Counted from the stretch's first letter, positions 2,535-57,200 are shown. The stretch: 64,000 bases of DNA from a virus (IMGVR_UViG_2840904412_000002:9071-73070), one strand, 5' to 3'. Notes: generated by a model not told the origin, from the letters alone. Numbers and translations: made by a program.

Positions 2535-3263
2535 ATGGCTAGAAAAAAGATGAGAAATAAAAACGATAAGACTCTAAAAGTTGTACCCGAGAAGAAAAGT
2601 ATTCTTGTAGAGTTATACGAGAATAAACTTCTACGTACAAAAGTAGATAATGCAATTGATGAGGACCTAGGTTATGACTACATCATAGAACTATGTAAAG
2701 AGTATGGGTTAGAATTATCTAAGTCTGCTATTAGTAGATATAAAACTAAACGTAGAGAAGCTATTCAAAATGGTTGGGACTTAGGGGAATATATTGATGG
2801 AAGAAAGAAAAATAATGTTTCTTCTATTGAAGATAAAGAAGTAGATGTATCTAGTAAAGTAAACCCTTCACATCCATTTGAAGTAGCTAAGAAAAAAACA
2901 CAAGATATTTATGATGATATTGAGGTTCTTGATAATATTATCCAAGCAGGTGCTTTAGGATTACAATACGTAGATACTGTAGACCCTGCTCTAGCTATTA
3001 AGGCTATGGAAACTAAACATAAAATTACAAATGGACAGTTACAAGGAATGAGCCTTATTGGTATGCGTGAGCTTTTAGTTAAACAAAACGCCCGAGATAC
3101 CGCAATAACTCAAGTTATTCTAGAGTACATCCCAGAAGAAAAACATGAGGAAGTTATGGAGCGTTTAGAAGAAACAGAAAAAGAATTCTATGAAAACTTA
3201 GACCTAGATGAAGAAGATATGAAGTTAAAACAAGCATTGGATAGAGTAGGATACTCTATTTAG
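2535..3263 (+). CDS. conserved hypothetical protein (possible HTH near N-terminus)
   Basis: 242 aa, RBS AAAGGAAG; YIIELCKEYGLELSKSAISRY. Confidence 0.65.
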   Translation: MARKKMRNKNDKTLKVVPEKKSILVELYENKLLRTKVDNAIDEDLGYDYIIELCKEYGLELSKSAISRYKTKRREAIQNGWDLGEYIDGRKKNNVSSIEDKEVDVSSKVNPSHPFEVAKKKTQDIYDDIEVLDNIIQAGALGLQYVDTVDPALAIKAMETKHKITNGQLQGMSLIGMRELLVKQNARDTAITQVILEYIPEEKHEEVMERLEETEKEFYENLDLDEEDMKLKQALDRVGYSI

Positions 3264-3277
3264 AATAGGAGAAGTAT

Positions 3278-3742
3278 ATGGTAGAAGAAATAGTATTTAA
3301 ACAGTTAGAAGAGGCACAACCTATTAAAGAATTAAGTACAATTATTAGATATTTAGAAGAAGGTAAAGTTCTATTGGTTAAACAAGAAAACCAAGGAGAT
3401 ATTATTGTAAAACTTACAAGTAACAGTACAAATGGACATAAAATGACTTATATTAGCAGAGATATTAAAGAAGAGTCGAGCTACTATAAAAGACATTGGG
3501 CGCCTTTTGATATTAGTATTAATGCTTTTATTGCTTTTGATGTTTACTTAGCAGAAGATGTTAATAAGTATAATTATAATAATAAGTTTAATATTAAGGA
3601 TATTGTAGAATTTGTAGCAGGAGATAGTAAGGACATTGCTTATGTGCATGATGTATTTACTGATGGCAGTAAGTTTCTATACAGCTTAACAGGGGAAGAA
3701 AGATTATTTGAAGAATATGAATTACGTAAAGTTAATCGTTGA
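3278..3742 (+). CDS. hypothetical protein
   Basis: 154 aa, RBS AGGAGA. Confidence 0.65.
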   Translation: MVEEIVFKQLEEAQPIKELSTIIRYLEEGKVLLVKQENQGDIIVKLTSNSTNGHKMTYISRDIKEESSYYKRHWAPFDISINAFIAFDVYLAEDVNKYNYNNKFNIKDIVEFVAGDSKDIAYVHDVFTDGSKFLYSLTGEERLFEEYELRKVNR

Positions 3743-26061: not shown

Positions 26062-26361
26062 ATGAAACAATTTATAATGGCGGTTGAATATGAAGACGGA
26101 CGTTTAGGTTACGTCCGCATGTACTTCGAGGGCTACGAGCTCTTAGAGGTGCAGGAGGTTGTTTTAGGTCACGAGGACATGCCTCCACGCTTTGAGGTTG
26201 AGGTGGACGAGATAGCGGACTATCTCGGATTTGCCTACCTCGAGGAAGAAGACCAATTTGGGCGCTTCTTCGGTGAGTGGTTGGCTCTTGGTGAATCTTG
26301 TGACGTGCCTAGTGATTTCCTCGAGGACGAGGACGGATATTTAGTAGAGGAGGTGGAGTAA
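26062..26361 (+). CDS. very acidic early protein
   Basis: RBS AGGAG; D/E-rich; locally high GC. Confidence 0.6.
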   Translation: MKQFIMAVEYEDGRLGYVRMYFEGYELLEVQEVVLGHEDMPPRFEVEVDEIADYLGFAYLEEEDQFGRFFGEWLALGESCDVPSDFLEDEDGYLVEEVE

Positions 26362-26565
26362 ATGACAGAGGGCAAAGCAAGAGAATACGCTGAACGTCTT
26401 ATAAACGCTAGTTATTATCTGTGCCCTCACGACCTAGTTGGAATGGCTAGTAAGTGGGACGGCATAGCAGACGACATTAGAATAATCGGCGTTGAGTGTT
26501 TCAAAAAAGAGTACTTAAAGGGTCTAGAGGTTGAAACCTTAGAGGTACTCAACAGATACGAGTAA
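26362..26565 (+). CDS. early protein
   Basis: coupled to the upstream gene. Confidence 0.55.
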   Translation: MTEGKAREYAERLINASYYLCPHDLVGMASKWDGIADDIRIIGVECFKKEYLKGLEVETLEVLNRYE

Positions 26566-26589
26566 GGCGGTCAATAGACCGTCTTTTTT
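26565..26589 (+). terminator. rho-independent terminator ending the early + strand cluster
   Basis: AGGCGGTC-AATA-GACCGTCT-TTTT. Confidence 0.75.
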
Positions 26590-27106
26590 ATTTGCCTTTA
26601 TATAGCTTGTATTTAGCCCATATAAGCACGCTAACCGCTTCTGTATGCTCGGTAATGTTATTGTACCTAGATAGATAAACGTTTGTTAGAGCGTCTATAT
26701 GAGCTGTATATGACATGTAGAATAGTTTGGTTCGTTGATTGATACAGTAAAGATTGAATGAATCAATAATATAAATTGAAAGAGGTTAATTAATATATAG
26801 TTTTTATTTAGATAAAGGTAGATTATATAAAAAATATAATTAATAAAATACGGGGGTCGGTAGGAAGCAACATAATCCGTGGCACATTCACCTAGATACA
26901 CCCCCCACTTAGGGTACTATAGATTTGGCATATTTATAACATTTTAATTACAGAAGTCAACATACACTATTTAGGTAGTTACCTCTATAAAGTCAACATT
27001 ACAAATCTACCCTGTGGGTTAGAAATGTATAGTATAAATAGATAGTCCTTAAATATAAAGTCAACATACCTAAAATAAAAAAGAGGTAAATTAAATCCCT
27101 CTTCTC

Positions 27107-36285: not shown

Positions 36286-36464
36286 TATATCACCTTACCT
36301 TATTTGTTAGTATAATCTTATCTTACTACACAAATTTATTAATGTCAACATCTAATTTATAACATGTTGTGTTATTACTGCAATCAGTATACACTACCTT
36401 TTCTATTTTGTCAACAAAAAAAGTACCTACAAATTAATGTAGATACTTATACTATAATTATAGA

Positions 36465-36665
36465 TTTTAAGGCGTGTACATGAAGGGTAACTCATGTAGG
36501 GTTTAGTAGTAAGATATAAAGCGCCTACCACGCAACATACAACGCCTCTTGTATGTTATTATATACGTACTGGAAGAAGTTACCAGTAGGAACCTACAGG
36601 CATATACAAAGCCTATGCCAGGCAATATACGGTATATCTCGTATATCAGGTATAATACCTTATAG
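36465..36665 (-). ncRNA. candidate multi-hairpin ncRNA downstream of tRNA-Met
   Basis: about six consecutive hairpins, no ORF, terminator at ~36415-36448. Confidence 0.45.
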
Positions 36666-36766
36666 TTATTATCTTGTAACCTATAACTTCCGATAATTAG
36701 GGTTTTATAATAACTACTGTATAAGTAACTATAACCTATAAGTTTTTTGTATACTAGGGACTATAA

Positions 36767-36838
36767 TGGACTCTGTAGGATTCGAACCTACACTCCAACG
36801 CTTATGAGGCGTTTGCTTTACCATTAAGCTAAGAGTCC
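36767..36838 (-). tRNA. tRNA-Met(CAT) (Ile2 not excluded)
   Basis: GGACTCT acceptor stem, D-loop, AACGC-CTCATAA-GCGTT anticodon arm, GGTTCGAATCC T-arm. Confidence 0.92.
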
Positions 36839-36936
36839 ATAAATTATCATGAGATAGGGCTTGAACCTTTAAGTAATTACTTTCAACACTTAACTATATA
36901 TAATGTAACATATTTTTAATAATAAGTCAAGTTATG

Positions 36937-37926: not shown

Positions 37927-38320
37927 TGATTAGCTCTTCTTTAATTAAGTGTTGTTTAAGACGTTCTACATAGTTACAAATCTTTTCTACTTCTTTATCT
38001 TCATCATCTTTACGACCTAAGCGTACTACGTATTTAATGATGTTAAATAACAAAGCATCTTTAAATCCTTCTAAATGTTCTTCTGTAAAACTAATAACAT
38101 CTACTTTTGAATTATTAGAATAGTGTTCTGGTACTGTAATACTTGGTTCAATATTATATAATTCTACAAGTTCTTTGACATGTTGTTCTAGACTTTTAAA
38201 ATGTCTTTCATGTTGAGATACATTAGAACAATCCTCCACTATTAATGTTTTTAATTGTAGTAGTTCTTTACTATCTTTACCCGTAGATTGATACTTTTCA
38301 ATAAATTCTTTTGATTCCAT
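37919..38320 (-). CDS. DUF3310 (T7 gp1.7-like nucleotide kinase family) protein
   Basis: VPEHYS...DVISF...NIIKYVVRLGRKD. Confidence 0.7.
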   Translation of the reverse strand: MESKEFIEKYQSTGKDSKELLQLKTLIVEDCSNVSQHERHFKSLEQHVKELVELYNIEPSITVPEHYSNNSKVDVISFTEEHLEGFKDALLFNIIKYVVRLGRKDDEDKEVEKICNYVERLKQHLIKEELINE

Positions 38321-38470
38321 TTCATACCGTCCTCTCAAAATAAGTTACTTTATTTTACCATATATAATAAATAATGTCAAATAAAAAATGAGGAGCTACA
38401 AGAGCCCCTCACCAAAGGAAAGATTATGATGTTATGGAATGTATCTAGTTGATACATTTATAATATAACA

Positions 38471-38992
38471 TTAATCTAATCCGGTAGAACCGAAGCCTCC
38501 ACGGTCACTGTGATTTTCAAATTTATCTACTACTACTGGTTCGGGATACACTACGGGAGCAATTACTAATTGAGCAATCTTTTTACCTTTTTCAATTTTT
38601 TGCTTAGTGCTTCCGATATTATCTACCATAACTTTAATTTCTGAATTATATCCGAAATCTACAGTTCCAAACTGAACTCGTAAGTCTGTCTTTGCTGTAA
38701 TACCTGACTTAGGTCGTACTTGAGCTTCATAACCTATAGGTAAATTAATTGCAATACCTGTAGGAACTAATGCTCTACTACCTTCAAAGACACATGTTTG
38801 TGTGGTGTTATTGTCTTTTTTCTTACATAAAGCTCTACCAATACGTTGTAATACTTGTCTTAGAGATTTTCTACAAGGATTTAATTCAATATCCTCTACT
38901 GCATATAGGTCTAACCCGCTATCATAAATGTTAGCACGTACTGGTATTTTTGCATCATTATGTAACAATTTAATTTCTAATTTTTCCATCAT
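38471..38992 (-). CDS. dut: trimeric dUTPase with a ~30-aa insertion
   Basis: DSGLDL, VPTGIA, QVRPKSG, GTVDFGY, IAQLVI, RGGFGSTG. Confidence 0.9.
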   Translation of the reverse strand: MMEKLEIKLLHNDAKIPVRANIYDSGLDLYAVEDIELNPCRKSLRQVLQRIGRALCKKKDNNTTQTCVFEGSRALVPTGIAINLPIGYEAQVRPKSGITAKTDLRVQFGTVDFGYNSEIKVMVDNIGSTKQKIEKGKKIAQLVIAPVVYPEPVVVDKFENHSDRGGFGSTGLD

Positions 38993-46565: not shown

Positions 46566-47664
46566 TTATTTCCATCTAACTCTACCCCAATATTTTTCTT
46601 TAACGATACGCTCTTTTTTATCTGTAATTTTACAGATAGCCATATAGAAGTATCCTGCACTAGGGTTAGTAGGGTATTTTAGCTTAATCCACCAATAGCC
46701 ATCTTTCTTAGTGACGCTATAAAATGGTACCCACTGATTAGCATAAATCCAAGAACCACTTTCTACTACTTTACCATCTAAGCCTGGTGAGCGTCTAACT
46801 TTAATAGTCCTATCTGCAGTAAAAGTGCCTCCCATATTCCAAGTAATTTTTGGTTTTGGTTTTTCTGCTTTGAAGTTTGGTCTAATAAAAATCATATTAG
46901 GGTCATAAGGATGTACTCGAATAGTAGCGGGTTCCCAACCTTTACCACCTTGGGCATTACCATATGTCCATCCCCCACCTAACCAATTGTTTTCAATCAC
47001 AACAATTTGGTTAAGGGTAGCACTTAACACCCATGCTACATGACCATGCCCATTACCATAAGCTCCTGGAAATAATACCATATCTCCACCTTTAGCTAAG
47101 AAGCTAGGTGTGTTTTTATATATTTTTGCTTTATCCTTAAGTAAACTAGCGTTATCACTAGCAATATTTTTTGCACTTGCTCCTTGTAAAGAGTATCCAG
47201 GGAATAATTTATTAAAACCATAGTTTGCTAAATCATAACATTGCATTATGTTGCGTTATTGCCTTTCCATTAGAATATTTCTACTCTAATTTGTATAACA
47301 TAACTCTTACACTTTCATGTAAAGTTCAGACTATATCTTTACTCGATTATTTAAAAGTCAAGCACTCACCACTGTCTATCAATTGATAGCACTTAGTCGT
47401 TGAACCTTTCTCTACTGTTACCATAGAGACTTGGATGCGGATTTCCCAATCTTTATCTTTTTTACTATACCAAACACATTACTGTCTGCCCCTAACTATG
47501 TCACCATGCTAGGTTAGTAGATAAAGCTCTGAGGGGGTTCCCGTCAATTCAATGAGTTAGGATACCATTTATTAATATCCGTACCAACCATCGTAATCAA
47601 TATATTTCCCTGCGGTACCTCTTAAAAAGGAGACAAATTGACTTCGTGTCATCTTTGCTAACAT
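46566..47664 (-). CDS. CHAP + SH3b endolysin, join(47575..47664, 46566..47243), 255 aa
   Basis: exon 1 MLAKMTRSQF...DYDGWYGY joins QCYDLAN; GHVAWV catalytic His; SH3b C-terminus. Confidence 0.88.
47244..47574 (-). mobile_element. group I intron (ORF-less, 331 nt) in CHAP lysin
   Basis: P1 GGAUAU/GUAUCC with U.G pair; AAUUGACGGGAA, AAUCCGCA, UCAACGACUA, GAUAUAGUCU cores; terminal G; splicing restores the frame. Confidence 0.9.
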
Positions 47665-47677
47665 TTAATCAATCCTC

Positions 47678-48583
47678 CTAATTCCACTTAATTTGACCCC
47701 AATATTTTTCTTTAATAATACGCTCTTTTTTATCTGTAATTTTACATACTGCACAATAGTAATAGTCTTTACTAGAGCCTGGTTGTTGATACTTAAATCT
47801 AACCCACCAAAATCCATCCTTCTTAATAACTTTATCAAACGGTACCCAGTCATTTTTTGTATATAACCATGAATTTTTATCAACAATTGCACCTTTTAAT
47901 CCTGGTGATTTACGTACTTTAATAGTTGTGTTAGGGTAGAAAGTACCACTTAAATTCCAAGCTGTTTTAGGGTCTGTATGTTTTACCTTTGGAGTTACTG
48001 AACCAGACTTAACTGATTTACTACCTTTAATATATTTTGCTACAATTTTATCTAAGTTACTTGTATCCCTACCATATCCTGCTTGTTGTAATAAATTTCC
48101 TGGGTCTTGCTTATCTGATTGAATATCTTGATGTCCTGGCATTCTTGTTTTGTAATCTATTTTCCAGTAATCACAAAGATATGCTAATACACGAGCAAAG
48201 TTATCTAATGATTTTTTAGTTCTTTCTTTATCTGAAAAGTAACAACCTTCTACACCAATCGCAGCATCGTTAGCATCTAAATTATACCATAAATTATCAG
48301 TAGGTGCGTTATACATTACGTGGTAGGCAATCTCAGTCGTAGGTATACAAATAATTGCCTCTTTATCATCAACAAATATATGAGCACTTGCTACATAATC
48401 CCAACCGATGTTGTATGTATTTCTATAGTAATCTACATTGTTTTGTGCAGTAGAGTTTAAATTTCCTGTATCATGTGCAACAATAAATTTAGGGACGCCA
48501 GTAGTCATATTTTTACCTGGTCGTCTAGTTGCAACTGGTAATAGTTGGAACTTTACTGTTACACCATTCCAATTTTCAGCCAT
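47678..48583 (-). CDS. N-acetylmuramoyl-L-alanine amidase (Amidase_2) + SH3b endolysin
   Basis: IVAHDTGN, ASAHIFVD, AYH, GHQDIQSDKQDPG; SH3b paralogous to that of the CHAP lysin. Confidence 0.9.
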   Translation of the reverse strand: MAENWNGVTVKFQLLPVATRRPGKNMTTGVPKFIVAHDTGNLNSTAQNNVDYYRNTYNIGWDYVASAHIFVDDKEAIICIPTTEIAYHVMYNAPTDNLWYNLDANDAAIGVEGCYFSDKERTKKSLDNFARVLAYLCDYWKIDYKTRMPGHQDIQSDKQDPGNLLQQAGYGRDTSNLDKIVAKYIKGSKSVKSGSVTPKVKHTDPKTAWNLSGTFYPNTTIKVRKSPGLKGAIVDKNSWLYTKNDWVPFDKVIKKDGFWWVRFKYQQPGSSKDYYYCAVCKITDKKERIIKEKYWGQIKWN

Positions 48584-48594
48584 TTATCTTCCTC

Positions 48595-49089
48595 CTAGCC
48601 TTTTGGTGAGCTTGTTTTATGTTCATCTGGGACATCATCAATAGGTGTTTCAGAATCTAGTTTTTCCATAGGTTCTGCAATTGCTAAAATATCTTCATGT
48701 TCTAATTCACCAACTACATCTGGAGCCATAGGATGACTACCTCCGTCTACAATACTATTAACTTTATTATTCTCCCAAGTTAATGATTGTTCTGGGTCTT
48801 TAGAATCACGTGGTTCATGGTAATCTGTTTGAACAATAATACTATCTTTAATACCTTTAGTATTGTTATCTACTAAAATACCTAAACCTGCAAGCAATGT
48901 TAATATAGAGCCAATAATATTAACACCTTGCTCTACTTGACTAGAATAATCTAAGCCAAAAGCACCTGTTAATTGATTGATAAATACTGCTAAGGCAGAT
49001 ACACTAGCTACCCAAAACGTTTTACTTTTAAAACGGGTACTTAAGTTAATACCACCAACAACTGTAGGTGTCTTATCTTTTTTAGTCAA
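48595..49089 (-). CDS. hol: holin (phi LC3-like)
   Basis: GINLSTRFKSKTFWV, two TM helices, GILVDNNTKGIKDS; late promoter upstream. Confidence 0.85.
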   Translation of the reverse strand: MTKKDKTPTVVGGINLSTRFKSKTFWVASVSALAVFINQLTGAFGLDYSSQVEQGVNIIGSILTLLAGLGILVDNNTKGIKDSIIVQTDYHEPRDSKDPEQSLTWENNKVNSIVDGGSHPMAPDVVGELEHEDILAIAEPMEKLDSETPIDDVPDEHKTSSPKG

Positions 49090-49163
49090 AATAAAAAACG
49101 CCCTTTCTTGTTATATTTTTTTACATTACTAATATAACAAGATTAGACGTTTAAGGTATATTT

Positions 49164-49343
49164 TTATAGTTCTTTTAATGTACTAATAACTTGAGACATT
49201 TGTTTATTATCTAGGTCCTCTAGATTTGTCTCTGGTAATAATTCTAACTTTTCCCAAAGTTCATTTTTATTATTAATTTTATCTTCTAGCAATGCTTTAC
49301 CTACTAAACTTTGAGTAAAATAAATTTGTTTTTGACTAGCCAT
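49164..49343 (-). CDS. conserved small protein
   Basis: MASQKQIYFTQSLVGKA. Confidence 0.6.
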   Translation of the reverse strand: MASQKQIYFTQSLVGKALLEDKINNKNELWEKLELLPETNLEDLDNKQMSQVISTLKEL

Positions 49344-49462
49344 AATAATCATTTCCTTTTATTAAAATCTAGCCATTGTGTACTGAAAATCAGGAGAGTA
49401 ATTGAAAGAAAGGAGAAATGTATGAAAACCAATTCCACAATGGCTATAATATTGTATATTAC

Positions 49463-49994
49463 TACAATTAAATATCATAACATAGCCGTTCTCACACGGA
49501 ACTATGTATAAAGAAATATTGTTAGGTTACCTAGTTCTAGTAAGTTCTATACGGGAGCGACCTCGTAGTCCACTTATAGAAGCATAAGCAGTATAGGGAT
49601 AGGGTCTATTACCTACCAACTTTCACACGGTATGAAGAATTATTGTAAAGTATGCAAGTATTTGTTAGCGTTATTACTTTTCTTTTATTGTAGATTTGTG
49701 CTACTTGTACTGGTATCATTCATTATCAAACATGTTTCCATGCTCCAACTACAAAAGTGCTTTATTAGTGTAATTATATAGGAGACCACCAAGTTCCTAT
49801 ATAATGATTGCACCTGACAGATACCATACCTTATATCCCTTTATACATAGAGCTGAACAATCCACCTCGTATTCAATAATACTCAAAGGGTATTTCCTAA
49901 GTTCTCACGTAGGTTTAACACCCTGTGACATTTTCACACCTTACAGCCACCACACTGTTAAATTTCAGTCACTATGTTATGATATTTAATTGTA
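49463..49994 (-). ncRNA. candidate large ornate ncRNA (~530 nt, ROOL-like size)
   Basis: perfect 23-bp terminal inverted repeat, nested 12-bp long-range stem, promoter at 50009-50038, no credible ORF. Confidence 0.7.
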
Positions 49995-50161
49995 TTAAGT
50001 TGTAAATATAATATAACACACTTTTAAAATTCAGTCAAGTAAATTTAAAAACTTTTTATAGTTTTTTTATACTAGGGTAAAAAAGTAGTAAAAAGACCTA
50101 GTTGTGTAAGGGGTCATTTATTTATATATAAAGTATAGCATAAATAAAAAACCGTGTCAAG

Positions 50162-50983
50162 TTAATTTAGTAAATTTTTTGAATTTATTAATTTTTGTTT
50201 TTCTAGTTCTAGATTTGATAGTTGTTTATTTAATACAATTTTAAAATTAGTATTGTCAGTTTCTTCTACGCAGTAAGAGTACTTGCCTGCCATTTCAAAT
50301 ACAATCCTAGAACTTTCTTCTAGTAATGTTTTATCTTGAGATACTAATCTAGTAAGACCAAATTTATTGGACTCTGTTTTACTAATACCATTCTTTAACA
50401 TTCTTTTTCTAGTTCTTGTTATTCTAGATTCAATGTTGATACCTAGGTTAGAGTTTAAGTTCTTCGATAACTCTGACCAACAGTATGATATTGACTTACC
50501 ATACATAATACGTTCTTTTTTGCATCTATTAGTAGCAATACCTCTTATCATAGAAACTAGCTCTTTTCTCCATTCTTCCGTATCTACATTTAGGTTGTAG
50601 ATTACGTTATTGTTTACTGAGTAAGAACCCGTTTTTCTGATAGAAGGTAAAACTTCTTTTCTAATCCACCTTTTAAATTCTTTTGCTGATTCTAATTTAC
50701 TACCAAAAATTAAACTGTATATACCAGGCTCATTGATAATTGTTTTATTAGAGAAGTCATTGTTACTCCATAAGGCGCTTTTAATAGCTTCCGTTAATTC
50801 TACGGAAGCCTTATATGACAAGACTTTCTTATCATCTTCCTCTACATGTACACGAACTGCTTGGTCTAAGTCTGTGTACCCTAACACGCATGCTACATCT
50901 GTTCCTAATGCATAAAATTCATTATTAATATTGAAACTTCTAATTTTTTGTCCTTCATAGTTTAAATTTAATAAATTTTCCAT
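50162..50983 (-). CDS. BRO-N domain (antirepressor-like) protein
   Basis: GTDVACVLGY, IINEPGIYSLIFGSKLESAKEFKRWI..EVLPSIRKTGSY. Confidence 0.85.
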   Translation of the reverse strand: MENLLNLNYEGQKIRSFNINNEFYALGTDVACVLGYTDLDQAVRVHVEEDDKKVLSYKASVELTEAIKSALWSNNDFSNKTIINEPGIYSLIFGSKLESAKEFKRWIRKEVLPSIRKTGSYSVNNNVIYNLNVDTEEWRKELVSMIRGIATNRCKKERIMYGKSISYCWSELSKNLNSNLGINIESRITRTRKRMLKNGISKTESNKFGLTRLVSQDKTLLEESSRIVFEMAGKYSYCVEETDNTNFKIVLNKQLSNLELEKQKLINSKNLLN

Positions 50984-51054
50984 AGTTATCATTTCCTTAT
51001 CATTTATTTTATACTTCTATTCTACTACAACATTAAAGTAAAGTCAACACTTTT

Positions 51055-51270
51055 TTACTTACTTTGTAATTCTTCTTGAAGAGAATCCCAATATTTTTCT
51101 GCTTGACTTCTATTATCTTCCACATGAGCAGTGACTTTATTACATTTGACACAATGCATATGTTTAATATGTCCTTCTTCTCTTCTTTTTGCTCTTTTTC
51201 TTGGTAATTTAAAACTTGAACCACACTCTTCACATACTAAATTTGAGATTACATAAACTTGCTTTTTCAT
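51055..51270 (-). CDS. zinc-ribbon protein
   Basis: CEECG...REEGHIKHMHCVKC. Confidence 0.65.
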   Translation of the reverse strand: MKKQVYVISNLVCEECGSSFKLPRKRAKRREEGHIKHMHCVKCNKVTAHVEDNRSQAEKYWDSLQEELQSK

Positions 51271-51330
51271 TTTTATCAATTCCTTTTCTATTTATTTGTT
51301 TTATATTTATATTATAATAGGTGTTGAGTA

Positions 51331-54232: not shown

Positions 54233-57200
54233 TTGGATGGTAAAGAGTTATTAAAGATTACTCAAGAAACATTTCAAACGGAACAAGTAACAAAAGAGCA
54301 GGTTGACCATATTTTAAATATGCTTAACCCTAGTACTTATATGCTTAAGTATCATACGCTAAGGGGGCATCCTATAACGTTTAGTATTCCAAATAGGGAT
54401 AGAAGTAGGGCACAAGCGCATAGACCTTGGCAAGTCCGTAAACTACATATGCGGACTATAAACCTTTTCTAAACTTGGAAACTCCTAACGTAAAGACGAG
54501 GACAATCAAGTGCTAAATTCAGTTTAATACTGATAAACGCCTAACGACTAAATTTACTGGTAAGCAATTAAATGGAATTGTGTAGAACAGTATAAGAGGG
54601 AAACCGTAACGAAAAGGGCTTTTACACCAAGAAGTAAAAGTATGAGATAGTCTAGTCCCCTAATAAATATCGGGAAACCGAGGGTAAAAAACGATAGTAA
54701 ATGATACCCACCCTAACAAAGCAGTAATTAAATCGAGACAATTAGGGCTATCGGAGATGTCAGTAATGGAGATGGTACATTTTGCGGATTTACATAGCTA
54801 TGCCTCTGTAAAGTGTATGTACACATTTCATACCCAAGACCAAGTTAAGAAATTTGTACAATCAAGGTTAAATCCAGTATTACAAAAACCTTATTTTAAC
54901 TCTATTGTAGATTGGGAACAAGATTCACAAGGCTTTAAAAAACTAAGAAATTCTAGTATGTTCTTTAGAACTAGCAGTAAGCCAGGGGCTTTAGAAGGTG
55001 TTGACGTAGATTTTTTAGTTTTTGATGAATACGAACGTGTGCCTAAATTATCAGAATCTTCTGGGTTGGAAGCCATGTCTAGTTCTCCTTTTAAAGTAGT
55101 TCGTAGATTCTCCACACCATCAGCACCAGGAATAGGAATACACAGATTATACCAACAATCTGACCAATGGTATTATGCACATGTTTGTCAGCATTGTGGT
55201 CATGAAAATGAAATGAAGTATGCAGATTATGACCCTGATAATTTAGATAAGAGTGGGAATTTGTTATGCGTAAATCCTGATGGTATAGACGAGATGGCAA
55301 AAACAGTACAAGATGGTACGTATCAATATGTGTGTCAAAAATGTGGGAAACCACTGGATAGATGGTATAATGGAGTTTGGAGATGCCATTTTCCAAATAG
55401 AACAAAGAATAATGCAGGTATAAGAGGGTACTATATTAGTCAGATGAATGCGGTAGATACATGCCCTTTAATGTAGAAATACATTAATAGCATCCCTTTA
55501 ATTCATGGGACATCTCTCATTTGAGACAATCATGAGCCAAGCCTATATTAATAGGAAGGTGCAACGACTATTATGTAGTTCCAAGTGGAACGAAACGGGG
55601 GAGACCTAAGTCTCATATGATATGGTTATGATATAGTCTGAGCTTTGTAGGTGACTACAAGAAGGATAGGAGTAACGAACCTATTCGTAACATAATGGTG
55701 GATTTCAGCTGACCAACTTGTTGAGAAGGAGTTAAATACTGAGTCTAAACAAGCATTTTATAACTACGTATTGGGTTAGTGGCATAGCCCCTTTACACAG
55801 TAATGTGTATCGAAGAACTCTGTTAAACGGGGAAACCCCTAACGTAAAGACGAGGGCAATCCCGTGCTAAGTGTTGACTTTATATAAAATACATGTTATA
55901 ATGTACTTGTAAGGTTAACTAAATGCCTAACGACTAAATTTCTAGGTAACTTACAAAAGGGTGTAAGTGAGAACTAGATAAGAAAACTAATACTTTGAAA
56001 AATTTTAATAAAAATAATAAAGATAGGGGGGTAATTATTTATGAGGAAACCTATAAGTACTAAGGAATTTGAAAATATTTTAAAAGAAACAGAAAAAGGA
56101 CAGTATACTTTACTAGGTGAAGTTGTCAATGCCAAAACTAAAGTTGATGTTAGACATGAGAAGTGCGGTACTGTATATAAAGTAAGTCCTTCTTCCTACA
56201 AAGGGGGTAGCAGATGTCCTATATGTGCAAGAAAAGAAAGAGTAAATACACGTAAAGGTGGAAGAAGAAAAACACATGAGGACTTCATAAAAGAGGTTTA
56301 CAATCTTGTTGGAGAAGAATACACAGTTAACAGTAAGTATGAAAAATGGAATACTAAAATATCATTTACACATAATAGTTGTGGGAATACTTTTTTAATG
56401 ATTCCTAATAGTTTTTTGAATGGTAGAGGTTGTCCTGAGTGTGGTAGAAAAAGAAGTAATTCTGTAAGAAACTCAAACAATAATATTTTTAAAGAAAAAC
56501 TAAGACTAAAATATGGCAATGAGTACACTCCTTTAGAGGACTATAAAAATAACTCAACAAATATATTAGTTAAGCATAATACTTGCGGTAACTCATGGAG
56601 AGTTAAACCTGCTAATCTACTATGGGGTTATGGATGCCCTAGATGTAAACAGTCCAAAGGAGAAAAGTTGGTAGAAGAGTATCTTTTAAGTAAGGGAATT
56701 AACTTTACGACCCAAAAGAAGTTTAAAGATTTAAAAGCAGTTAAAAATTTATCTTTTGACTTCTACCTACCAGAAGAAAATATTCTTATTGAGTATCAAG
56801 GAAAACAGCATTATCACCCAGTAGATATTTTCGGAGGAAGAGAGCAGTTTAAAAAGCAAGTGGAATATGATAATATGAAGAGAGAGTATACTAAGAATAA
56901 AGGATACCATTTAATAGAAATACCATATAAGTATACTACCATAGAAGGTATAGAAGAAATTTTAAACAAAGTATTAGTGTAAAGCAGAGAGCCCTTAACC
57001 TAAACTAAGGGTTATGATATAGTCTAAACCGTAAATAAATACTAGGAAACTAGCGGTAGTAATTGATGCCTTATGAAGATTTAAAAATGCGTGTATTACC
57101 AGAAGACGTGTTTGAAAACAAATCACAGATTGCTAAAGAACAATTATTTGATAGAGATAGATATAAGTATATATCATGTAGTGTTGACTGGGGTAATTTT

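Follow-up and report, generated by a model that had tools for sequence, protein, structure and literature searches.

The window analysed here is a 64,000-nt stretch of viral DNA (IMGVR_UViG_2840904412_000002:9071-73070) from a Twort-like Staphylococcus myophage, the region under study being 99% identical to vB_SpsM-DH2 and 90.5% identical to Twort by BLAST. On its minus strand, between a homologue of iro (51055-51279; the open reading frame (ORF) 51033-51233 was considered for this gene and rejected) and a lysis cassette (uphA-holin-endolysin), lies an element at 49459-49998 that is conserved, present in a single copy and noncoding, and that has the architecture and the long-range pairings of the large ornate RNA family ROOL, behind a strong promoter-like site.

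A conserved, covarying minus-strand RNA

The element is closed by a stem, P1, whose 27-nt arms are 96% complementary and contain a perfect 23-mer. In the whole 64 kb there are exactly two copies of this word, one being the reverse complement of the other, and two such matches were reached in 0 of 100 shuffles. A preliminary description of the locus had proposed an RNA of ~530 nt with a perfect 23-bp closing stem, a nested repeat starting at 49502, an inner ATTATATAGGA hairpin, and no credible ORF. The stem was recovered and found to be longer, the nested repeat (49502-49519 with 49833-49850; 18 nt, 89% complementary) and the inner hairpin (arms 49773-49783 and 49795-49805; 11 nt, 100% complementary) were confirmed, and the size was revised, the RNA being large but measuring 540 nt from stem to stem. 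ORFs of at least 30 aa within the region were 30–61 aa in size. Searching both strands of 15 homologues, window included, revealed no ORF common in position or frame, and C1C, EW3 and PSU5 had no ORF of at least 25 aa on the RNA strand, in keeping with the noncoding character first proposed. The window and the 73-kb record that contains it hold one copy of the element, which lies at an equivalent genomic place in at least six genera, and was present at the syntenic site in 15 of 15 loci.

Related DNA was found by BLAST in 307–330 records, every one of them a phage of Staphylococcus or Mammaliicoccus, and for the majority the match was confined to a 65-nt core. Fourteen loci (Twortvirus, Silviavirus, Sepunavirus, Sciuriunavirus, Baoshanvirus, Kayvirus, and unclassified Twortvirinae) were added to the window, and a profile hidden Markov model (HMM), built from eight full-length relatives, was run on the resulting 15 loci. 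A full or near-full-length homologue was detected in every one of these Twortvirinae loci, with profile positions 2-539 matched in 11, and 24-517, 4-538 or 9-539 matched in the remaining four; the phage K homologue (NC_005880.2, 38010-38590) was found with an expectation value (E) of 4e-99.

RNAalifold, applied to the 15-sequence alignment, produced a consensus of 134 base pairs. Standard pairs occupied 97.0% of the alignment cells, as against 78.4% (standard deviation 0.6) after shuffling of 3′ partners and 36.7–40.5% after sliding by 1–3 columns, and 87 of the 134 pairs showed changes on both sides (shuffled mean, 54.6; slid controls, 15–26). The observed pairing and compensatory values were equalled in none of 500 shuffles; an alignment of homologues had been among the checks proposed in the preliminary description. 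Within P1 (helix 1), 14 of 26 pairs were compensatory and 97.2% of cells were paired. Over all predicted pairs, G-U cells far exceeded A-C cells (241 vs 23), and the minus strand was therefore assigned as the RNA, as originally suggested and in agreement with the strand matched by the ROOL covariance model (CM) described below. Fold energy relative to shuffles was comparable on the two strands (z = −5.2 for minus, −5.6 for plus), and therefore cannot choose the strand by itself.

Coordinates of the helices and flanking sites are collected in Table 1. Helices h8 and h9 (49501-49851) enclose the core and 3′ domains. The invariant words of h14 form the block best conserved by BLAST, and inside this helix lies an A-rich linker (49628-49688, alignment columns 366-441) that varies in length and has no conserved pairs. 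Two pseudoknots were identified: in PK-A, 64 of 64 cells were paired with 2 of 5 pairs compensatory, and in PK-B (columns 301-305 with 361-365) every cell was paired with 3 of 5 pairs compensatory. Taken together, 139 of 139 cells were paired and 5 of 10 pairs were compensatory, compared with 0–1 in slid controls, while one of five measures (further pair types) was not above shuffles. The junction bases of PK-A begin 2 nt past h12's own 12–14-bp stem, and in H-type pseudoknot geometry a 2-nt linker cannot span a stem of this length, which argues that PK-A would probably form between molecules. By position, PK-A would correspond to the J11/9-L11′ contact (helix names were mapped from text descriptions), which is reported as intermolecular in the octamer of the Enterococcus faecalis ROOL (Efa) resolved by cryogenic electron microscopy (cryo-EM) (PMC12990946).

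Table 1. Features of the element and its flanks, numbered from the first base of the window
Feature	Position	Strand	Description
Structured RNA	49459-49998	minus	540 nt, P1 outer end to P1 outer end; ROOL CM, profile HMM, covariation
Closing stem P1, 5′ strand	49972-49998	minus	pairs with 49459-49485
Closing stem P1, 3′ strand	49459-49485	minus	pairs with 49972-49998
Long-range helix h8 (nested repeat)	49833-49851 with 49501-49519	minus	19 pairs, 13 compensatory
Helix h9	49828-49831 with 49524-49527	minus	4 pairs, 3 compensatory
Hairpin h12 (ATTATATAGGA hairpin)	49773-49805	minus	loop CUUGGUGGU; 14 pairs, 11 compensatory
Hairpin h13	49726-49747	minus	GAAA tetraloop; 8 pairs, 4 compensatory; aligned to ROOL GccgaGAAAucggC hairpin
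Helix h14	49697-49707 with 49617-49627 (element 49617-49711)	minus	invariant words GUACAAGUAGC, GUGAAAGUU
Hairpin h16, 3′ domain	49550-49567	minus	loop UCGCU; 6 pairs, 5 compensatory
Pseudoknot PK-A	49791-49787 with 49770-49766 (span 49766-49791)	minus	h12 loop to junction
Pseudoknot PK-B	49753-49749 with 49693-49689 (span 49689-49753)	minus	UGUAG with CUACA; 5′ flank of variable linker
RNA promoter (predicted)	50009-50038	minus	−35 TTGACT 50038-50033, 17-nt spacer, TG-extended −10 TATATT 50015-50010
Second sigma-A-type promoter-like site	50132-50160	minus	TTGACA-17-TATACT, TG-extended; ~120 nt upstream, tandem
Trailer hairpin between RNA and uphA	49370-49446	minus	11-bp stem, 11 nt 100% complementary

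Comparison with ROOL, GOLLD and Kayvirus lncRNA2

The Rfam ROOL model (RF03087) spans positions 1-574 and carries a gathering cut-off of 99.1 bits. At Rfam gathering thresholds the window returned two group I introns and one tRNA only. In E-value mode on 1.2 kb, the ROOL CM matched 49466-49902 on the minus strand over its whole length, with a score of 69.2 bits and an E of 1.8e-13, and full-length matches were also obtained for SEP1 (88.2 bits, E 2.6e-18; the model P1 being the closing stem) and CF5 (62.5 bits, E 2.1e-13). As the window score is below the curated cut-off, ordinary annotation misses this RNA. No match to the GOLLD or OLE models was found in 49100-50300 at E up to 10. A search with these three models had been suggested in the preliminary description, which considered a ROOL-like RNA or a new class; the ROOL likeness was upheld by the CM and the architecture, by both pseudoknots and synteny, and by a profile search in the reciprocal direction, and given this relationship a new class is not needed.

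The CM alignment of SEP1 was compared by eye with the independently derived consensus, and helices 1, 3, 7-14 and 16 were seen to coincide, helices 1, 8-11 and 14 being the brace, bracket and parenthesis helices of the ROOL model; one helix, h4, was mis-registered by the CM. In both RNAs P1 joins the ends and the order of long-range helices is equal, h8 with h9 matching the second brace helix. Hairpin h12 is equivalent to ROOL P11 and was aligned by the CM to the ROOL hairpin with a GUGGcAa loop, a GUGG-type loop pairing with the following junction in each case, and a GAAA hairpin is likewise common to both. The h14 words were aligned to identical ROOL words, GUACAAGUAGC and GUGAAAGUU..GUAAU being invariant, and the poorly conserved linker within the helix carrying AGUAGC and GUGAAAG, a trait of ROOL, is present with its flanking pseudoknot; the ROOL linker is described as disordered inside the cage (PMC12286853). 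The RNAs are also of one length class (540 nt here, 538–627 nt in 15 above-threshold viral ROOLs), and both are phage-borne; ROOL genes are often neighbours of tRNA genes, and the orthologues of the window RNA lie beside tRNAs and are very abundant (PMC12286853; PMC12990946). The window RNA differs in its longer P1 (26–27 bp, compared with 16 in the model) and in being followed by a lysis cassette with no adjacent tRNA. Some Staphylococcus members carry inserts relative to ROOL, of ~35 nt in the 3′ domain (K-like phages and Silviavirus: K, Romulus and CIFT_MFB_MRSA16) and of 45 nt in a 5′-domain hairpin (vB_SurM-PSU4). GOLLD resembles the window RNA as a large ornate phage RNA found near tRNAs, and forms cages (PMC12286853), but differs from it in size and architecture as well as in the CM search.

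A motif scan of IMG/VR returned 29 loci, and all 15 that were tested hold a ROOL above threshold amid tRNA islands, so the ROOL model behaves normally on canonical members. A search of these loci by nhmmer with the 15-sequence profile (8 of 29 matched) was discarded as circular, because the motif used to collect these loci is itself part of the profile. Among five other Herelleviridae representatives, ROOL was found in four (Enterococcus EF24C, 264.8 bits; Brochothrix A9, 192.8 bits; Lactobacillus LP65, 128.4 bits; Listeria A511, 87.5 bits, below cut-off) and not in Bacillus SPO1. On these loci, which were chosen independently of the motif, the Staphylococcus-only profile HMM found the ROOLs of A511 (E 8.3e-7), EF24C (E 6.9e-6) and A9 (E 1.1e-3). 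The A511 ROOL (26196-26747; locus 1501-2052) lies between tRNA-Pro and a true homologue of Staphylococcus iro/gp191 (37–40% identity, E 1e-14 to 1e-18), and is, as judged by sequence, the member that best bridges canonical ROOL and the RNAs of the Staphylococcus phages. Downstream of the EF24C ROOL come tRNA-Asp and tRNA-Trp, as tRNA-Asp, tRNA-Phe and tRNA-Trp come after the phage K RNA; tRNAs also follow the orthologous RNA in PSU5, Golestan, CF5 and Romulus, and the downstream partner varies among lineages while the RNA stays.

The pseudoknots extend to these relatives. The PK-B words UGUAG/CUACA are identical in A511, the corresponding model positions of EF24C, A9 and LP65 hold different words that are again complementary, and PK-A is kept with other letters in EF24C (UGAG/CUCA), A9 (UGGG/CCCA) and LP65 (UGAU/AUCA). 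The h16 loop contains a GC-centred palindrome (AGCU, UAGCUA, GCUAGC or UUGCAA) in 13 of 15 Staphylococcus sequences, and the equivalent loop in all four other Herelleviridae ROOLs is GGUAGCUCC or the near-variant GAGUAGCUCU, each with UAGCU; that of A511 is identical to the K-like lineages and not to the window. By analogy, a palindromic loop here would suit a symmetric L15-L15″ kissing loop.

The phage K orthologue of the RNA is, on sequence comparison, the published Kayvirus long noncoding RNA lncRNA2 (phage K, 38,024-38,566; vB_SauM-515A1, 38,000-38,525). The window RNA and lncRNA2 correspond in their full-length profile match, strand, flanking iro, promoter position, and covarying structure, whereas BLAST shows the 65-nt core only, at 80–81.5% identity, and phage K, unlike the window, has its three tRNAs and a 330-nt trailer downstream. 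In vB_SauM-515A1, lncRNA2 is given as a minus-strand transcript of 525 bp that accounts for 8.4% of normalised counts, rises 45-fold from 5 to 30 min, and precedes tRNA-Trp/Phe/Asp under a typical early promoter, p78 (PMC7698491). In a further report it is a minus-strand transcript with the highest read number in the phage, flanked by gp191 and gt004 and driven by its own early promoter, and it is likened to GOLLD and ROOL by location and abundance only, its nature being left open (PMC9241854); a review repeats this comparison (PMC10383478). For phage K, lncRNA1 and lncRNA2 are reported to make up 27% of reads from 2 min on, with the tRNAs downstream of lncRNA2 much lower, no evident terminator and a function stated as unknown (PMC11598898). 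Published evidence of high expression, which the preliminary description proposed for the window RNA, concerns the Kayvirus orthologue only (PMC7698491, PMC9241854, PMC11598898).

Promoter, proposed course and rival explanations

The predicted transcription start of the RNA promoter is ~5 nt ahead of P1. The −10 of this promoter is overlapped by a sequence at 50018-50009 that is identical to the late −10 consensus of Kayvirus, TGTTATATTA (PMC7698491). A −35/−10 pair stands at equal distance from the RNA in 11 of 15 homologues, and the late box is exact in three (window, Twort, CF5), has one mismatch in two and two mismatches in six, and is absent within 110 nt in the remaining four; the −10 region of the phage K promoter differs from the box at 2 of 10 positions. 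Across the window, TTGACW-17-TATAYT occurs at 10 sites (0.19 expected) and the late box at five (1.54 expected), all five on the minus strand, and the RNA promoter alone fits both patterns. The preliminary description had reported a minus-strand TTGACT-17-TATATT promoter containing the late motif, which is correct as a statement of sequence. Its further proposal of a dual early/late promoter stands as a motif, while the orthologous promoter of 515A1 is classed as typical early and promoters joining a −35 box to the late motif are described as showing no late boost (PMC7698491). The tandem layout formed with the second promoter-like site is also seen upstream of the RNA in MSShimriz1 and EW3. 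No terminator-like site was found in 49100-50300, including between the RNA and uphA. Contigs from RNA libraries (4 runs, 4 studies) span 49530-49965 and give a weak hint of transcription, as DNA may be present, depth cannot rank genes, and uncovered flanks prove nothing; run X1 also yielded a piece at 48455-48658 (word depth 2.2 vs 1027), and the 30-nt pieces of run X2 at 50173-50202 are of low complexity.

The probability that 49459-49998 is a 540-nt noncoding RNA of the minus strand, the Twortvirinae form of ROOL and the orthologue of lncRNA2, following the course proposed here, is put at roughly 0.85. Host sigma-A RNA polymerase would start transcription upstream of P1 at the strong TG-extended promoter with its phage late −10 box, early and possibly also late in infection. 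The RNA would then fold to the ROOL architecture indicated by covariation, P1 joining the ends around the nested long-range helices, and the fold would be completed by the GAAA hairpin, the pseudoknot flanking the A-rich linker, and the 3′ domain. Homology and geometry suggest that copies of the RNA may bind one another, the two PK-A segments being among the contacts, and that such contacts may close into a homo-oligomer like the ROOL nanocage. ROOLs are reported to build octamers or hexamers, with hollow cages, by cryo-EM (PMC12286853; PMC12990946), the structures being those of the env-120, E. faecalis and Ligilactobacillus salivarius members. For the window RNA the stoichiometry may differ from eight, since it lacks the apical P10 hairpin; the P10 stem is described as not always conserved and its length as altering stoichiometry (PMC12286853; PMC12990946). 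By analogy with these members, the window RNA, as a divergent ROOL lacking P10, probably self-assembles into an RNA cage. As there is no terminator behind the RNA, a longer transcript would probably be cleaved at P1 or close to it to release the mature form, whose paired ends may explain accumulation. As a working guess, the cage would sequester or scaffold a host or phage component during infection.

Several results weigh against the assignment to ROOL, and some of them would fit another origin. The window score lies below the gathering cut-off, which is an operational limit and not a structural feature; no ROOL CM match was obtained at the phage K locus even with lax filters, K-like members thus going undetected; and whole-record searches gave matches in 2 of 15 Staphylococcus-phage records only, 12 of the 15 being without a candidate and the window's own record having one, none at E ≤ 1. 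A 28.7-kb scan of the 14 loci returned tRNAs only, ROOL being lost, and since its speed filters dropped even the 88-bit SEP1 match it says nothing on absence. In the reciprocal direction, a motif-free sub-profile HMM (columns 220-344) found nothing significant, a 122-position CM from the Staphylococcus core found canonical ROOLs in 0 of 29 loci with default filters and a best in-ROOL match of 12 bits (E 0.72) in one of six loci with filters off, and the Staphylococcus-only HMM gave no match in LP65. As to structure, the P10 hairpin (Efa numbering; P7 of env-120) is absent, the P10 columns of the model being empty in the window alignment with 5 nt between h11 and h12, one of three 5′-domain hairpins is missing from the Staphylococcus branch, and the h16 loop of the window and Twort is the Rfam consensus UCGCU, without a palindrome. 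The nearest tRNA in the window is 12.6 kb from the RNA. The sub-threshold score, the phage K result and the negative sub-model tests, together with high CM bias terms (16.3 and 29.4 bits) and misplacement of the P1 5′ strand by the CM in the window alignment, could point to a separate class of large structured RNA, made ROOL-like by convergence or by an AT-rich, long-stem composition, with the CM matches misleading. This explanation is considered quite unlikely, in view of three independent full-model matches exactly at the covariation-defined RNA, the helix-by-helix correspondence including two pseudoknots, the PK-B words and h16-equivalent loop that A511 has in common with Staphylococcus lineages, the reciprocal HMM matches to A511, EF24C and A9, and the tRNA-Asp and iro synteny common to both groups.

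A cis-acting role, in which the element would be a giant leader or processing platform for the downstream transcript (uphA-holin-endolysin here; tRNAs in Kayvirus) and not a free-standing RNA, draws on the missing terminator before uphA, on the closeness of the uphA start codon in CIFT_MFB_MRSA16 (~20 nt past the RNA) and of tRNA-Ser in Romulus (abutting its 3′ end), and on the late box present both in the RNA promoter and in the holin promoter region (49130-49139). It is held to be improbable, because the phage K RNA is reported far above the downstream tRNAs (PMC11598898), 515A1 holin-lysK expression is reported to have depended on its own late promoter (PMC7698491), the downstream partner changes by lineage with the RNA kept, and other ROOLs lie by themselves among tRNAs. 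A miniature inverted-repeat transposable element (MITE), or other mobile DNA with stem-like ends, had been named in the preliminary description as the outcome that would overturn it, and would account for the 27-nt terminal inverted repeats; it was rejected on the single copy in the window and record and the syntenic place in 15 of 15 loci and at least six genera, and is rendered most improbable by an interior that covaries as RNA, with its one-strand G-U excess, and by arms that themselves covary. There is as little to favour several small protein-coding genes, which public records annotate as 27–55-aa ORFs across the RNA (Twort gpORF073-076; MSShimriz1) and which were rejected as the 15 homologues have no ORF in common.

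Read as divergent ROOLs, lncRNA2 and its Twort-like counterpart join two open questions, ROOL having solved structures and no known function, and the Kayvirus lncRNAs amounting to up to 27% of phage reads with their nature left open by three transcriptome papers; this connection to lncRNA2 is the chief result. ROOL is thereby placed in a phage model that is strictly lytic and has published RNA-seq time courses, and as genome-editing methods reportedly exist for it (PMC12442396), a deletion phenotype is directly testable. ROOL is also a feature common to Herelleviridae, given its presence in 4 of 5 non-Staphylococcus representatives, with the Rfam threshold missing the whole Twortvirinae branch and Listeria A511.

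Trailer and neighbouring observations

The interior of the trailer hairpin is CU-rich with anti-Shine-Dalgarno-like words, and its closing stem carries two compensatory changes between the window and Twort. In 13 of 15 lineages the RNA is followed by hairpins with CU-rich words in their loops that resemble the 16S rRNA 3′ end (UUCCUCCUUU type), and such words were not found in the trailers of Romulus and CIFT_MFB_MRSA16. Taken on the plus strand, the CU-rich words look like Shine-Dalgarno sites; start codons come next, with ORFs of 1–29 aa that are not conserved across lineages, nor between the window and Twort; a type I toxin-antitoxin reading of the trailer was therefore rejected. A more far-reaching proposal, that the most abundant transcript of Twort- and K-like therapeutic phages of staphylococci would be a P10-less ROOL, excised from a terminator-less precursor at the 26-bp duplex and self-assembling into a cage with a subunit number other than eight, while its CU-rich trailer engages ribosome-binding sites or ribosomes, is offered tentatively and is more doubtful than the ROOL assignment itself.

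In the Romulus locus (530-617, 618-1184), tRNA-Ser begins at the base directly after the RNA, whose 3′ terminus could therefore be a product of RNase P cleavage. The exact late box TGTTATATTA at 49130-49139 (minus strand) lies between uphA and the holin gene and, by analogy, fits a holin-endolysin late promoter as in vB_SauM-515A1 (PMC7698491).

Between iro and the RNA, a 276-aa Bro-N/anti-repressor-like ORF was found at 50162-50992 (minus strand); as iro directly precedes the RNA in Twort, this ORF looks like an insertion in the window phage. Hypothetical proteins are annotated over the RNAs of Twort (gpORF073-076, locus 2608-3092) and MSShimriz1 (four ORFs, 431-1166), over the ROOL of A9 (gp60, locus 2917-3339), and at the ROOL edge in EF24C (ORF218, 3225-3359), and ORFs annotated across these RNAs are probably spurious. 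At the Kayvirus lncRNA1 position, downstream of tRNA-Met (36766-36839), the window has an ORF-poor gap of ~480 nt (36286-36766, minus strand), within which no Rfam match was found, nor is the region paralogous to the ROOL-like RNA; the segment 36581-36705 matches phage K 13991-14126, inside the published lncRNA1. The two group I introns lie at 47306-47634 (minus strand, 75.6 bits) and 55420-55661 (plus strand, 83.4 bits), the former splitting the endolysin gene next to its amidase/SH3b exon (47678-48583).

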